DNA of 4,642 nucleotides from a virus (lineage: Duplodnaviria; Heunggongvirae; Uroviricota; Caudoviricetes). Positions 482 through 4,642 of this stretch are shown in pieces (positions within the stretch are counted from its first letter, which is position 1; every line of letters begins with the position of its first letter). The stretch lies in IMG/VR virus record IMGVR_UViG_2667527959_000005. The stretch is one strand, 5' to 3'. Both the position numbers and the translations under genes were made by a program. The notes under the pieces are model-generated. The model searched no databases. It was not told the origin of the DNA and worked only from the letters and a program-made list of their open reading frames with translations.

Positions 482-805
482 ATGAAGATGCCAGAAAAAC
501 ATGACCTGTTAGCCGCCATTCTCGCGGCAAAGGAACAAGGCATCGGGGCAATCCTTGCGTTTGCAATGGCGTACCTTCGCGGCAGATATAATGGCGGTGC
601 GTTTACAAAAACACTAATCGACGCAACGATGTGCGCCATTATCGCCTGGTTCATTCGTGACCTTCTCGACTTCGCCGGACTAAGTAGCAATCTCGCTTAT
701 ATAACGAGCGTGTTCATCGGCTACATCGGTACTGACTCGATTGGTTCGCTTATCAAACGCTTCGCTGCTAAAAAAGCCGGAGTAGAAGATGGTGGAAATC
801 AATAA
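482..805 (+). CDS. S: Class I holin, lambda S type, with dual-start motif (antiholin S107 from ATG 482, holin S105 from ATG 488)
   Basis: 107-aa ORF beginning [34 protein letters not shown], which matches lambda S as I recall it over its whole length with very few substitutions. It has the Met1-Lys2-Met3 dual start and three hydrophobic segments with a charged C-terminus. The 17-nt overlap with the following endolysin gene is the same S/R arrangement as in lambda. Confidence 0.95.
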
Positions 806-1265
806 TCAACGTAAGGCGTTCCTCGATATGCTGGCGTGGTCAGAGGGAACTGATAACGGACGTCAGAAAACCAGAAATCATGGTTATGACGTCATTGTTG
901 GCGGAGAGCTATTCACTGATTACTCCGATCACCCTCGCAAACTTGTCACGCTAAACCCAAAACTCAAATCAACAGCAGCCGGGCGCTATCAGCTTCTTTC
1001 CCGTTGGTGGGATGCCTATCGTAAGCAACTTGGCCTGAAAGATTTCTCTCCGAAAAGTCAGGACGCTGTGGCATTGCAGCAGATTAAAGAGCGTGGCGCT
1101 TTACCGATGATTGATCGCGGTGATATCCGTCAGGCTATCGATCGTTGCAGCAATATCTGGGCGTCGTTACCTGGTGCAGGTTACGGTCAGTATGAACATA
1201 AAATCGGTGACCTGATTGCCCGATTTAAAAAAGCTGGTGGGGTAGTAAATGAAGCTGAGATATAA
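789..1265 (+). CDS. R: Endolysin, lambda R type lytic transglycosylase
   Basis: 158-aa [42 protein letters not shown]..., which matches lambda R from memory, including the catalytic Glu19 in the WSEGT context. GGAG at 779-782 is a Shine-Dalgarno 6 nt before the ATG. The last ~25 residues diverge from lambda R. Confidence 0.95.
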
Positions 1266-1641
1266 GCTGGTTATCGCTGCATTCTTCTTTACTGTCATCG
1301 GTTCTTTCATCTGGTCTGCCAACCACTACTACAGCAAATATCAGCACGAAAAGAAACGTGCTGATGAGGCTGTACAAAATGCCAAATCGGCAACTGTCAT
1401 TACCAATAACGTCCTGCAATCACTGCAAATCGTCAATACAGTTCTGGAGGCTAACCAGCATGCAAAACAGCAGATCACACTGGAGTCACAGAGAACCGAG
1501 AACGATATCAAGGCTGCTGTTGCGGATGATGATTGTGCTGTTCGTTTTGTGCCTTCTGGCGCAGTTAAGCGGCTGCACGACTACGCGAACGGTCTACGTT
1601 CCAGTTCCGGTGGTTCCGTTACCAGCCAACCTGACGGCTGA
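1249..1641 (+). CDS. Rz: Rz-like inner-membrane spanin subunit (i-spanin), non-lambda type
   Basis: 130-aa ORF whose start overlaps the R stop (ATG 1249, R stop 1263-1265), with GGTGGGG as Shine-Dalgarno. It has an N-terminal signal-anchor (LVIAAFFFTVIGSFIW), then a charged, Q/E/K-rich periplasmic region with a Cys near the C-terminus. It sits at the third position of the lysis cassette and contains an embedded +1 frame lipoprotein ORF. The sequence is unlike lambda Rz. Confidence 0.8.
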   Translation: MKLRYKLVIAAFFFTVIGSFIWSANHYYSKYQHEKKRADEAVQNAKSATVITNNVLQSLQIVNTVLEANQHAKQQITLESQRTENDIKAAVADDDCAVRFVPSGAVKRLHDYANGLRSSSGGSVTSQPDG

Positions 1642-1804
1642 AACACCGCAGCCAGACTTACCCGACCCGTTTACGTGGGGAGCAAGTCTTGACCTGAATG
1701 TCGCATTGCTGTCAGCGCTGGCGCAGTGCAACAGGGATAAGGCTGATATCAGGATTTTCGAGAACAACAGGGCAGGACAAACCGATGGCACGATTAAACG
1801 TTGA
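1526..1804 (+). CDS. Rz1: Rz1-like outer-membrane lipoprotein spanin subunit (o-spanin), overlapped architecture
   Basis: In the +1 frame relative to Rz: MMIVLFVLCLLAQLSGC, with lipobox L-S-G-C and the Cys at residue 17 from ATG 1526. The mature region is proline-rich (VYVPVPVVPLPANLTAETPQPDLPDP) and carries a further Cys (AQCNRD). The ORF starts inside Rz and ends 163 nt after the Rz stop. The start is uncertain: ATG 1526/1529 has no positively charged n-region, while in-frame ATG 1460 (GGAGG 11 nt upstream) would give a long charged n-region. Confidence 0.65.
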   Translation: MMIVLFVLCLLAQLSGCTTTRTVYVPVPVVPLPANLTAETPQPDLPDPFTWGASLDLNVALLSALAQCNRDKADIRIFENNRAGQTDGTIKR

Positions 1805-1970
1805 AGTTATCCCACCAGACAGCGAGGTGCTGAACGGGATTTTTGCAGAGATTGAGCGCAAATATGCGCGTCAGCCGCTGACGCCAAAAGTAATTGATGA
1901 AATGCAACGCGAAGTGGCGCGCCTTGTGCGGCGAATGATAACCACAAAGGTTACGTTCGTCCGGGACTGA
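1785..1970 (+). CDS. Hypothetical small protein (61 aa), function unknown
   Basis: ORF MARLNVEVIPPDSEVLNGIFAEIERKYARQPLTPKVIDEMQREVARLVRRMITTKVTFVRD. AGGA at 1774-1777 is 7 nt upstream of ATG 1785. It is co-oriented with the late operon and overlaps the Rz1 stop by 20 nt. The composition is protein-like (charged, probably helical). No motif I can name. The upstream in-frame ATG 1698 has no credible Shine-Dalgarno. Confidence 0.4.
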   Translation: MARLNVEVIPPDSEVLNGIFAEIERKYARQPLTPKVIDEMQREVARLVRRMITTKVTFVRD

Positions 1971-1977
1971 CATTACA

Positions 1978-2000
1978 GAAGCCCTTCACTGAGGGGCTTC
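1978..2000. repeat. Inverted repeat / RNA hairpin between the small ORF and the HExxH gene
   Basis: GAAGCCCTTC (1978-1987), loop ACT, GAGGGGCTTC (1991-2000): 10-bp stem with one G-U wobble, or a 7-bp perfect stem with a 9-nt loop. There is no downstream U-tract (GATAATGGAG follows), so it is not a canonical intrinsic terminator. Confidence 0.4.
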
Positions 2001-2024
2001 GATAATGGAGCACTGGGATTATTC

Positions 2025-2645
2025 ATGAACAGACCACACCCACCAGCGCATTTTACGATGCCACCTGACCCGAAGCCGTACATCAGCATTATGCCCGCTA
2101 ATGACGTTGGCGAGTGGCTGAATAAGCACATCCTGAGCGATGAGGGTGACCTCTACAACCCTGACCACCAGCATTTGCTTGAAGCGGATCTGTGCTTTCT
2201 CTGGGCGTCGAACGCTTTCGAGAAGAAAGGGCGTTCCGTGCTGGGGCAGGCGGAAGAAGTGGCAATGCGTGCCGGAGGCTGGCAGAAAGCGCGGATGGAG
2301 CAGCAGATGTATGAATGGTTCGGCAGGGTGCCGCAGTTCATCATCACGCTGGCCGCTGATTACTGCTCGCAATGTTCCGATCTGGAATTCTGTGCGCTGA
2401 TAGAGCACGAGCTTTATCACATCTGCCAGGCGACAGATGAATTTGGCGCGCCGAAGTTCACGCAGGAAGGGCAGCCAAAGCTGAAGCTGCGCGGCCATGA
2501 CGTGGAAGAGTTTGTGGGCGTGGTTCGCCGTTACGGTGCGAGCCGGGACGTGCAGGAAATGATTGATGCGGCGAATCAGCCAGCGGAGGTTGCTCATCTC
2601 GATATTGCCAGAGCGTGCGGGACGTGCATGCTGCGACTGGCTTAA
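2025..2645 (+). CDS. HExxH-motif protein, putative zinc metallopeptidase-like phage protein of unknown function
   Basis: 206-aa ORF co-oriented with the late operon. HELYH at residues 128-132 (nt 2406-2420) is preceded by CSQC (residues 114-117) and a further Cys at 123, with CGTC near the C-terminus (residues 198-201). The N-terminus is proline-rich (MNRPHPPAHFTMPPDPKP). Only weak Shine-Dalgarno candidates (GGGA 2015-2018, GGAG 2007-2010). Family assignment is from motifs only. Confidence 0.7.
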   Translation: MNRPHPPAHFTMPPDPKPYISIMPANDVGEWLNKHILSDEGDLYNPDHQHLLEADLCFLWASNAFEKKGRSVLGQAEEVAMRAGGWQKARMEQQMYEWFGRVPQFIITLAADYCSQCSDLEFCALIEHELYHICQATDEFGAPKFTQEGQPKLKLRGHDVEEFVGVVRRYGASRDVQEMIDAANQPAEVAHLDIARACGTCMLRLA

Positions 2646-2676
2646 ATACTGGACTGTATAAGACGAATGGTGATTT

Positions 2677-3150
2677 ATGGCTGCATTAAAACCTGATGTG
2701 AAAGCCTTCATCATTCAGTCGCTTGCGTGCTATGACACGCCATCGCAGGTGGTCGAGGCTGTCCAAAAAGAATTCGGGATCAAGATCACCCGCCAGCAGG
2801 CTGAATCTCACGACCCCACGAAGGCCAGCGGTAAGACGCTCGCCAAAAAGTGGATCGAGATGTTCCACGCGACGCGCGAACGGTTCCTGACCGAAACCAG
2901 CGACATTCCGATCGCGAACAAATCCTATCGCCTCCGCGTGCTTGACCGCATGGCAACCAAAACCGAGGGGATGAAAAACTTCTCCCTGACGGCGCAGCTG
3001 ATTGAACAGGCCGCGAAAGAGGTTGGCGACGCTTACACCAATAAGCTGAAGGTTGAAAGCACTGGCAAGGATGGCGGCCCGATCAAGACCGAGACGACCA
3101 ACCTCACCGCAGATCAGGCCGCAGAGATTTACCGCAAGATGATGGGGTGA
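2677..3150 (+). CDS. Terminase small subunit (TerS), P22/Sf6-like headful type
   Basis: 157-aa ORF immediately upstream of the large terminase (stop 3148-3150, TerL ATG 3153), with GGTGA Shine-Dalgarno before ATG 2677. The C-terminal segment [17 protein letters not shown] resembles the conserved GKDGG-x-I-x-x-ET tail of Sf6/P22-family small terminases as I recall them. The N-terminal region is plausibly a helix-turn-helix DNA-binding domain. Confidence 0.8.
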
Positions 3151-3152
3151 TC

Positions 3153-4642
3153 ATGCCTCTCCCGTTTGAATTCGATTTCAGAAACCCTGATTACCAGATG
3201 GTTTTTGAATGGCGGATGGAGCGCTTACAGCGCATTCGCCAGAACCCTGAAATGCTGCCAGCGCTAAAGCAGTTTTACCGCACCAACCCGGCACAGTTCA
3301 TCATCGACTGGGGTATGACTACTGACCCGCGTAACATCGATTATGGCCTGCCGGTCACCATCCCTTTTCTGCTGTTCCCGAAACAGGAAGAGTGGATTCA
3401 CTGGATCATGGAGCGGCGCGAACGACTGGAGAACGGCATCACCGAAAAGAGCCGCGAAATGGGGCTCAGCTGGACGGCGATCGGGCTGGCCTGTTCGCTC
3501 TGCCTCTTCAACAAAGAAATGGTTATCGGTTTCGGCTCCCGTAAAGAGGAATACGTCGACAGCACCGGTGACCCGAAGGCGCTGTTCTGGAAGGCGCGCA
3601 AGTTCGTGGAAACGCTGCCCGTCGAGTTTCGCGGTTCGTGGGACGAGAAGAAGCACGCGCCGTACATGCGCGTTGAGTTTCCCGATACTGGCGCGGTTAT
3701 CAAAGGCGAGGCTGGCGACAATATCGGACGTGGTGACCGTACCACGCTCTACCTGGTGGATGAAGCTGCATTCCTCCAGCGTCCTCTGTTGATTGATGCG
3801 GCGCTGTCGCAAACCACCCGTTGCCGTATTGACCTGAGCTCGGTTAATGGCATGGCGAACCCGTTCGCGCAGAAGCGCCACGGCGGAAAGATACCAGTAT
3901 TCACGTTCCACTGGCGGGATGACCCGCGCAAGGATGAAGAGTGGTATCGCAGGGAATGCGAGAAAATCGACAATCCGGTGGTGGTGGCGCAGGAACTTGA
4001 CCTGAACTACAGCGCATCTGCGGAAGGCGTCCTGATCCCGTCCGACTGGGTACAGGCTGCCGTCGACGCGCATATCAAACTTGGTATTCAGCCAACGGGC
4101 AAGCGACTTGGCGCGATGGACGTCGCCGACGAAGGCCGGGACAAAAATGCCTTTTCGACCCGTCACGGCTTCCTTCTGGAGAACGTGCGTGAATGGTCCG
4201 GCGTGGGCAGCGACATTTACCAGTCCGTTGAGAAGGTCTTCGGCTTTTGCGAACAGGACAACCTCGAAGAGTTTCGCTTCGACGAGGACGGCCTGGGTGC
4301 TGGCGTTCGCGGCGATGCGCGCGCCATCAACGAACTGCGTAACGCTGCGCGCCGACCGTCAATACTCGCCACACCGTTTCGTGGTAGCGGCGCGGTATTT
4401 GATCCGGACGATGAAGCGGTGCGCGGGGACAACGGACAGGCCGCACGCCTGAACAAGGACTTCTTCGCCAACGCCAAGGCCCAGAGCTGGTGGTGGCTAC
4501 GCAAGCTTTTCCAGAACACCTATCGCGCCGTGGTTGAGGGCATGGCCTACAATCCGGACGAAATCATCTCAATCAGCAGCGCTATGGCGAGCAAAGACAA
4601 ACTCATCATCGAGCTGTCGCAGCCGACCTACTCCATTAACGG
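3153..4642 (+). CDS. Terminase large subunit (TerL), N-terminal ~496 codons; 3' end beyond window
   Basis: Open frame from ATG 3153 to the window end with no stop, which is why it is missing from the ORF track. Deviant Walker A KSREMGLS (residues 99-106, nt 3447-3470) and Walker B LYLVDE (nt 3747-3764). The downstream region ([14 protein letters not shown] ... [10 protein letters not shown] ... [17 protein letters not shown]) is recognisably similar to the nuclease domain of Sf6/P22-type large terminases. Translationally coupled to the upstream TerS. Confidence 0.95.

Follow-up and report, generated by a model that had tools for sequence, protein, structure and literature searches.

Inside the i-spanin gene Rz of a lambdoid enterobacterial prophage, a second reading frame opens in the +1 frame, runs on past the Rz stop codon and encodes a candidate lipoprotein, the o-spanin. 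It offers several in-frame start codons, and, depending on the one used, the same mature lipoprotein would be preceded by a signal peptide of 15–16 or of 38 residues. Which start does this gene use, what is the stretch between the possible starts, and is the resulting o-spanin unusual in its arrangement or in the length of its mature domain? We addressed these questions by comparing the window, that is, the whole 4,642-nucleotide stretch of DNA that was analysed, with homologous DNAs and with curated spanins.

The lysis cassette and its lipoprotein gene

The window is the start of the late genes of a lambdoid enterobacterial prophage, and the closest E. coli genome matches it over its full length with 96.6% identity. 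Its features are as follows:

Up to 49: 3' end of the antiterminator gene, placed by comparison with that closest genome (L001)
482–805, plus strand: lambda-family holin S (PF05106, 9.6e-31; phrog_126, holin)
789–1265, plus strand: endolysin R (phrog_90)
1249–1641, plus strand: Rz-type i-spanin, 130 aa (phrog_214, Rz-like spanin, 1.5e-42)
1446–1450, plus strand: Shine-Dalgarno sequence GGAGG, 9 nt 5' of ATG 1460
1460–1804, plus strand: o-spanin precursor (Rz1-like, LysC family), most likely 114 aa plus stop (Pfam PF23793; conservation of the ATG)
1785–1970, plus strand: small ORF in the third frame (orf61), 61 aa (phrog_12811, 2.2e-34)
2025–2645: putative phage metallopeptidase, 206 aa (Pfam, 1.8e-43)

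Past the end of the antiterminator gene, a promoter-like TTGACT-17-TAAATT sequence (92–120) precedes a strong hairpin of 13 bp with a T-run (154–192); together the two have the arrangement of a lambdoid late promoter with its short leader RNA and tR' terminator. The holin begins with Met-Lys-Met (MKMPEK..., 482–490), which we take to be the dual-start motif of lambda S107/S105 and which presumably implies a holin/antiholin pair made from one gene. In the i-spanin, an N-terminal transmembrane segment (residues ~7–23; 1267–1317) precedes a periplasmic helical domain, and Cys96 (codon 1534–1536) is invariant across 67 homologue pairs; the match of this protein to DUF2570 is weak (23.4 bits) and under the cut-off. 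The product of orf61 is a hypothetical protein according to PGAP, and phrog_12811 is of unknown function. Of 112 fetched loci, 82 have this small ORF, which shows only a weak codon-position signal and whose Shine-Dalgarno sequence scores -7.3 kcal/mol; it was considered as a homologue of Mu gp24, to which it shows no similarity. Beyond its 3' end lies an inverted repeat (GAAGCCCTTCACTGAGGGGCTTC, 1978–2000) that lacks a T-run, and the genes that follow encode, in order, the putative phage metallopeptidase, a DUF2280 protein and TerL. Annotations of the 2025–2645 protein conflict, Pfam calling it a metallopeptidase and phrog_513 (1.5e-97) carrying the label 'transposase'. An NCBIfam scan of Rz, Rz1, orf61 and R gave zero matches.

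The geometry of the lipoprotein ORF is as the initial annotation had described it: the ORF uses the +1 frame relative to Rz and stops at 1804, 163 nt beyond the Rz stop codon, candidate ATG codons are present at 1460, 1526 and 1529, the 3' end overlaps the next ORF (ATG 1785) by 20 nt, and three reading frames are in use (1 for Rz, 2 for Rz1 and 0 for orf61). With ATG 1460 as its start, the gene shares 182 nt with Rz. Its product is a member of Pfam family PF23793 (Rz1-like lysis system protein LysC), scoring 65.7 bits (3.6e-18) in its 92-aa form and 64.9 bits in its 114-aa form against a gathering cut-off of 27 bits; P2 LysC and Mu gp23.1 match the same family. It also matches phrog_456 ('Rz-like spanin', 7e-28), it is 100% identical to a 114-aa NCBI protein named 'Rz1-like lysis system protein LysC' (P0001), and a protein search returned 359 relatives from many genera. 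It falls outside the lambda Rz1 family, in that the Pfam scan yields LysC alone and the gene passes the end of Rz. The i-spanin/o-spanin pair sits directly downstream of the holin and endolysin genes, and across all six frames of the window this ORF is the sole one with a lipobox after a hydrophobic stretch. What is established here is that the product belongs to the family, that it carries a lipoprotein signal, that its gene sits in a holin-endolysin-spanin cassette and that there is evolutionary evidence for ATG 1460. The ORF very probably encodes the o-spanin, the outer-membrane partner in a two-component spanin of the P2 LysC/Mu gp23.1/SfV Rz1 family, in the standard overlapped arrangement and with its start at ATG 1460.

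The same locus shows a recurrent mosaic junction at 1442–1450, just 5' of ATG 1460, with equivalents in L011, L016, L036, L054, L070, L083 and L102; many E. coli genomes match window positions 1442–4642 alone (~97.5%). The sequence '..EANQHAK' is the point at which homologues with unrelated Rz N-terminal halves converge, and in three rearranged or truncated loci the breakpoints lie 10–12 nt 5' of the ATG. The C-terminal part of Rz and Rz1 seem to be exchanged as a single module.

Choice of the start codon

Judged from sequence comparison, the o-spanin most likely starts at ATG 1460 rather than at 1526, which would give a precursor of 114 aa with a signal peptide of 38 residues. The initial annotation had rightly flagged the start as ambiguous (1460 versus 1526/1529), but its left coordinate, 1526, falls inside the gene that the comparison favours.

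The comparison covered 66 distinct homologous DNAs from phage records, IMG/VR contigs and the genomes of ~20 Enterobacterales genera. Every one of the 66 keeps ATG 1460. In Rz, the overlying codon (1459–1461) is CAT, TAT, AAT or GAT (His, Tyr, Asn or Asp), always NAT, and its third base is never C, even though C would be synonymous in Rz; it would remove the +1 ATG. The codon at 1526, by comparison, is ATG in 55 homologues, GTG in 6, GCG in 3, ACG in 1 and CAG in 1, and ATG 1529 is retained in 65 of the 66, with ACG in one lineage (L098). Among the start candidates, only ATG 1460 has a strong Shine-Dalgarno sequence: its anti-Shine-Dalgarno duplex is worth -9.3 kcal/mol (1st percentile of Rz positions), the median at the equivalent position is -5.9 kcal/mol across 60 homologues, and a GAGG-type core is retained in nearly all homologues, while the internal candidates reach -2.3 to -3.3 kcal/mol against a background median of -1.7. 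PGAP annotates the 1460-equivalent start, as do the SfV record and the record of phage Mulock curated by CPT.

Other starts fared worse. TTG 1520 has a weak Shine-Dalgarno sequence and is replaced by TTT or TTA in 3 of the 66 homologues, and GTG 1535 is GCG, GCA or GTT in 37 of them. As for 1358, 1364 and 1379, most homologues have stop codons 4–14 codons 5' of the 1460-equivalent ATG; the listed ORF from GTG 1358 is therefore over-extended. The SfII record starts its Rz1 at the 1358 equivalent. A lipoprotein signal peptide of 38 residues exceeds the usual length, and for a different phage the SpaninDB curators marked a 37-residue signal as 'too long, might start at a downstream M' (PMC6139136 supplement).

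Between the window and Mulock, 17 of the 66 nt in 1460–1525 differ, 10 of them at position 3 of the +1 codons and 2 at position 3 of the Rz codons. For the +1 frame, pN is 0.11 and pS 0.75, and for the Rz frame pN is 0.31 and pS 0.09; 4 of 22 residues change in the +1 peptide and 11 of 22 in Rz, and two AGA-to-CGG switches keep Arg in the +1 frame while altering Rz. This contrast, the sharpest one, is owed mainly to one diverged lineage, the Klebsiella-type block; across 67 homologue pairs, conservation in 1460–1525 is 0.848 in the +1 frame versus 0.829 in Rz, a slight gap. We also counted minimal changes by codon position among 38 distinct sequences that share one Rz type. Upstream of 1460, position 3 of Rz is the most variable (71 changes versus 46 at position 1); in the stretch that begins at 1463 this ranking is reversed (10 versus 16), as it is in the undisputed overlap (18 versus 31). 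By Fisher's test, the upstream region differs from 1463–1525 with p = 0.049, which is marginal alone, and from 1463–1525 and the undisputed overlap taken together with p = 0.002, while the two latter segments do not differ from each other (p = 1.0). All lines of evidence agree on direction, and the substitutions in 1460–1525 are consistent with coding in the +1 frame.

Two other possible sources of constraint on this region were considered. RNA structure in 1435–1555 was rejected: the single-sequence fold has z = +0.96, and the consensus fold of 30 homologues amounts to -2 kcal/mol with zero compensatory pairs. For the antisense ORFs at 1341–1511 and 1486–1578, the wobble position coincides with position 3 of Rz, not with the position that is observed to vary, and neither has family matches.

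A start at 1526/1529 would give a precursor of 91–92 aa with a signal of 15–16 residues, and 1460–1525 would be untranslated in the +1 frame and conserved through Rz. Such a signal is of more typical length, with its Cys at position 16–17 (Cys17 of the 92-aa form starting at 1526), but it would have zero charged residues before the hydrophobic core, a peculiarity that had already been noticed at the outset. The short form is found in several database entries (P0002, P0004, P0010 and others; 92 aa), and SpaninDB gives one for SfIV (93 aa versus 112 for SfV). The conservation of ATG 1529 in all homologues except one, where it is ACG, speaks for an internal start, while codon 1526 is GTG, GCG, ACG or CAG in 11 of the 66 and lacks a Shine-Dalgarno sequence (-3.0 kcal/mol in the window; homologue median -2.3, near background). 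Conservation through Rz sits poorly with the substitutions in 1463–1525, where synonymous sites of Rz are suppressed and variation peaks at position 3 of the +1 codons just as in the undisputed overlap, with the persistence of ATG 1460 across four different Rz residues, and with the Arg codons kept in the +1 frame through double changes. We consider this start quite unlikely. Use of both ATG 1460 and ATG 1529, yielding long- and short-signal precursors of the same mature lipoprotein, is also unlikely. Both ATGs are nearly universal, the holin of the same cassette begins with the MKM of the lambda dual-start motif, and a dual start could tune the amount or timing of the o-spanin, loosely like that of the upstream holin. 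However, the internal start has no Shine-Dalgarno sequence, ATG 1529 is missing in lineage L098, and the benefit of two products with an identical mature protein is doubtful. Moreover, the conservation of ATG 1529 needs no start function, because the conserved Asp-Asp pair of Rz, when encoded with GAT, forces it and Met suits the hydrophobic core.

That the +1 ORF happens to be open by chance, or is a relic without translation, and that something else disrupts the outer membrane, has next to no probability. Open alternative frames do occur generally, and PGAP is inconsistent in close relatives, some of which omit Rz and some of which call the ORF hypothetical. Against this stand the HMM matches of 1e-18 to 1e-28, the homologues found in so many genera, the lack of a second lipoprotein candidate in the window and the invariant lipobox and Cys. 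In the Rz1-only part, comparison with diverged phages gives pN 0.18–0.20 and pS 0.69–0.85, indicating purifying selection, and the +1 frame is open and conserved across the 66 distinct homologues; the signal is far beyond chance, and the conservation data already refute a chance frame. An o-spanin is needed to disrupt the outer membrane, and its loss shows as spherical cells in Mg2+. The Mu homologue has been validated experimentally: an amber mutant in gp23.1 gives spherical cells, the spanin phenotype, and lambda RzRz1 complements it (PMC9239132).

The signal peptide extension and the mature lipoprotein

Read from ATG 1460, the precursor consists of the following parts:

1460–1525, plus strand: N-terminal extension, 22 residues, MQNSRSHWSHREPRTISRLLLR, net charge +4, two His
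1526–1576, plus strand: hydrophobic core and lipobox, MMIVLFVLCLLAQLSG followed by Cys, that is, residues 23–38 and then Cys39
1574–1801, plus strand: mature lipoprotein, 76 aa, a Pro-rich segment and then a C-terminal helix

The extension is rich in Arg and His (SRSHWSHREPR) and is conserved over many Enterobacterales genera, with 11 of its 22 columns invariant in a 22-sequence alignment that spans several genera; residues 1–22 are predicted to be disordered. It would supply the n-region charge that a 1526 start lacks. Across these genera, the substitution data show it to be under purifying selection at the amino-acid level. When the first 39 aa were searched against 1.84 billion representative proteins, 12 matches were found; those that make sense belong to this o-spanin subfamily or are truncated or rearranged copies of it, and two long repetitive proteins are spurious, which argues that the extension is not a portable module. 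In P0126 and P0128, the same 39-residue signal peptide is fused to unrelated downstream sequence; these are probably rearranged or decaying prophages and not cases of a reused signal module.

Tat signals have two adjacent Arg residues, in a motif like S/T-R-R-x-F-L-K, on the N-terminal side of the hydrophobic core. A Tat signal was rejected here: the residues before the core are ISRLLLR, ISKWLLR or ISGLLLR, and no homologue has the RR pair. The core itself has 16 uncharged residues with a mean Kyte-Doolittle value of 2.38, and a helix is predicted by AF2 at residues 18–36. The lipobox LSGC (1565–1576, with the Cys39 codon at 1574–1576) fits [LVI][ASTVI][GAS]C; it is LSGC, LTGC or LNGC in 66 of 66 homologues, and its Cys is invariant. 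The PROSITE PS51257 pattern is not matched, owing to Gln at -4, but we place no weight on this. Under the Lol sorting rule, a lipoprotein without Asp at +2 goes to the outer membrane. In the window the +2 residue is Thr; homologues have G, T, S, N or V there and in no case Asp, which predicts outer-membrane sorting.

The mature domain, put at about 75 residues by the initial annotation, counts 76. It begins with a Pro-rich extended segment (1577–1675; residues 37–72 are extended in the AF2 model), continues with a C-terminal helix (~1676–1783; residues 73–108, pLDDT ~85) and ends in a tail that is variable among homologues. Its single conserved Cys, Cys90 (codon 1727–1729), lies in the helix, where Q89, C90 and N91 are invariant, and Rz likewise has a single conserved Cys, C96. 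A periplasmic Cys for an intermolecular disulfide is near-universal in o-spanins (Kongari 2018).

For the window locus, translation, lipidation and a role in lysis would follow by homology with lambda, P2 and Mu. On this model, the precursor would be exported by Sec, lipidated at Cys39 and cleaved by signal peptidase II (Lgt/LspA/Lnt processing), and the lipoprotein, with Thr at +2, would be sorted to the outer membrane by Lol. The Pro-rich segment would extend into the periplasm, where the C-terminal helix would bind the C-terminal part of Rz, and both subunits would dimerise through disulfides of their single conserved periplasmic cysteines. Once holin and endolysin had removed the peptidoglycan, the complex would fuse or disrupt the inner and outer membranes, completing lysis.

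Whether the 22-residue extension (M..SRSHW[ST]HRE[PS]R..S..LLR) is more than a long n-region is a further matter. That it is a sequence-specific functional element, serving as a gate of export and processing or acting in the inner membrane after cleavage, is a tentative idea that we regard as possible but rather doubtful. Extended signal peptide regions in autotransporters slow or gate export and processing, and the extension might likewise slow or gate those of the o-spanin; alternatively, the 38-residue peptide freed by signal peptidase II, made up of a cytoplasmic tail and a membrane helix, might have a role within the inner membrane as lysis proceeds.

Annotation and comparison with known spanins

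The gene as found matters little in itself: it is a recognisable, annotated member of an o-spanin family in the most common spanin arrangement. As first stated, the finding was already known, with an annotated family, an identical database entry, a prototype architecture and a typical length. Both 1460 and 1526 lie inside Rz, the Rz stop is at 1641 and the o-spanin has its own stop at 1804, which places the pair in the overlapped class, the architecture of Summer 2007 and Kongari 2018. Among 528 two-component spanins surveyed, 228 are overlapped (the largest class), 182 embedded and 118 separated (PMC6139136). Curation of a relative leads to the same class: SpaninDB lists the SfV homologue as 'ovl', in the +1 frame with a 182-nt overlap and with coordinates that begin at the 1460-equivalent ATG (PMC6139136 supplement); the initial reading of the o-spanin as overlapped and not embedded is thus in agreement with the curated entry. 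The mature domain had also been called unusually long, which is true relative to lambda Rz1 only. The mature lambda Rz1 has ~40 aa, and its gene lies wholly within Rz. By contrast, SpaninDB gives periplasmic-domain lengths of 74 for SfV, 75 for SfIV and 76 for P2, and many that are longer (PMC6139136 supplement). Given these lengths and the P2 layout, in which lysC also overlaps the following gene and three frames are likewise in use, such a mature length, an extension beyond Rz and an overlap with the gene downstream are the norm for the family.

The practical value of the comparison lies in annotation, where the evidence points to the 1460-equivalent ATG. Public records of this gene use at least four starts, with products of 85–92, 105–114, 144 and 148 aa; the annotated o-spanins have 144 aa in SfII, 112 in SfV and 93 in SfIV. 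In the closest genome (L001 4266–4461), PGAP names lysC and omits Rz entirely, the SfII record (L002 1665–2099) extends Rz1 to its 144 aa, and in RCIP0034 (L006 1135–1458) the o-spanin is called hypothetical and Rz is absent from the annotation. In a record titled Chryseobacterium sp. (L090, CACSKA010000001.1), a 76% identical version of this enterobacterial prophage spanin is present, probably owing to a mislabelled or contaminated assembly.

Relative to the literature searched, what is new is modest: the conservation of the long start and the purifying selection on the extension. Spanin localisation signals have been said to 'have no functional significance' (PMC6139136), and selection on the extension runs counter both to this statement and to the distrust of long signals among the SpaninDB curators. 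If the extension does have a role of its own, it would challenge that view, and the final step of phage lysis would gain a further level of regulation.

Among known systems, the closest named phages are SfV, SfII, SfIV and the Klebsiella phage Mulock, whose o-spanins (the 'Mu' o-spanin family of SpaninDB) are 68–81% identical to that of the window and which share with it the extension, the 1460-equivalent ATG and a 130-aa Rz; the 182-nt overlap of SfV equals that of the window. Their C-terminal tails are shorter than or unrelated to that of the window (...NRAGQTDGTIKR), and the downstream genes differ. In Mu, the mature domain of gp23.1 is 51% identical to that of the window, with PxTWGASL and LGQCNRDKA as common motifs, and gp23 is related to Rz (24% identity, E 1e-8; common D-x-C-x-x-R-x-VP motif). 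Mu also has the overlapped +1-frame arrangement, with an o-spanin gene whose 3' end overlaps a small ORF, although the two small ORFs are unrelated; its signal peptide has 28 residues (MMQKKKLQPP...) without the SRSHWSHREPR extension, and it lyses with a SAR endolysin and releasin in place of the lambda-type holin and endolysin of the window. P2 LysB/LysC is the prototype of the overlapped two-component spanins. P2 LysC belongs to the same Pfam family (6.2e-18 versus 3.6e-18 for the window), and its gene likewise begins within the i-spanin gene in the +1 frame and continues for ~150 nt beyond the i-spanin stop, overlapping the next gene as well (146 nt with lysB and 38 nt with R). LysC has 96 aa with Cys21, so that its mature form of 76 aa equals that of the window, and its N-terminal half is similarly Pro-rich. 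On the other hand, the two o-spanins are only ~32% identical (E 0.001), the i-spanins are barely related at the Pfam level, LysC has several periplasmic cysteines where the window has one, and its signal peptide, which has a normal MRTK n-region, is 20 residues long compared with 38 in the window; like Mu, P2 is without the 22-residue extension. With lambda, finally, the spanin pair of the window has its role in common, and the window shares a type II inner-membrane protein paired with a +1-frame, Pro-rich outer-membrane lipoprotein that has a single periplasmic Cys, as well as a lambda-like holin and endolysin, whereas the spanin pair of the window matches no lambda Rz or Rz1 model in the Pfam scan.
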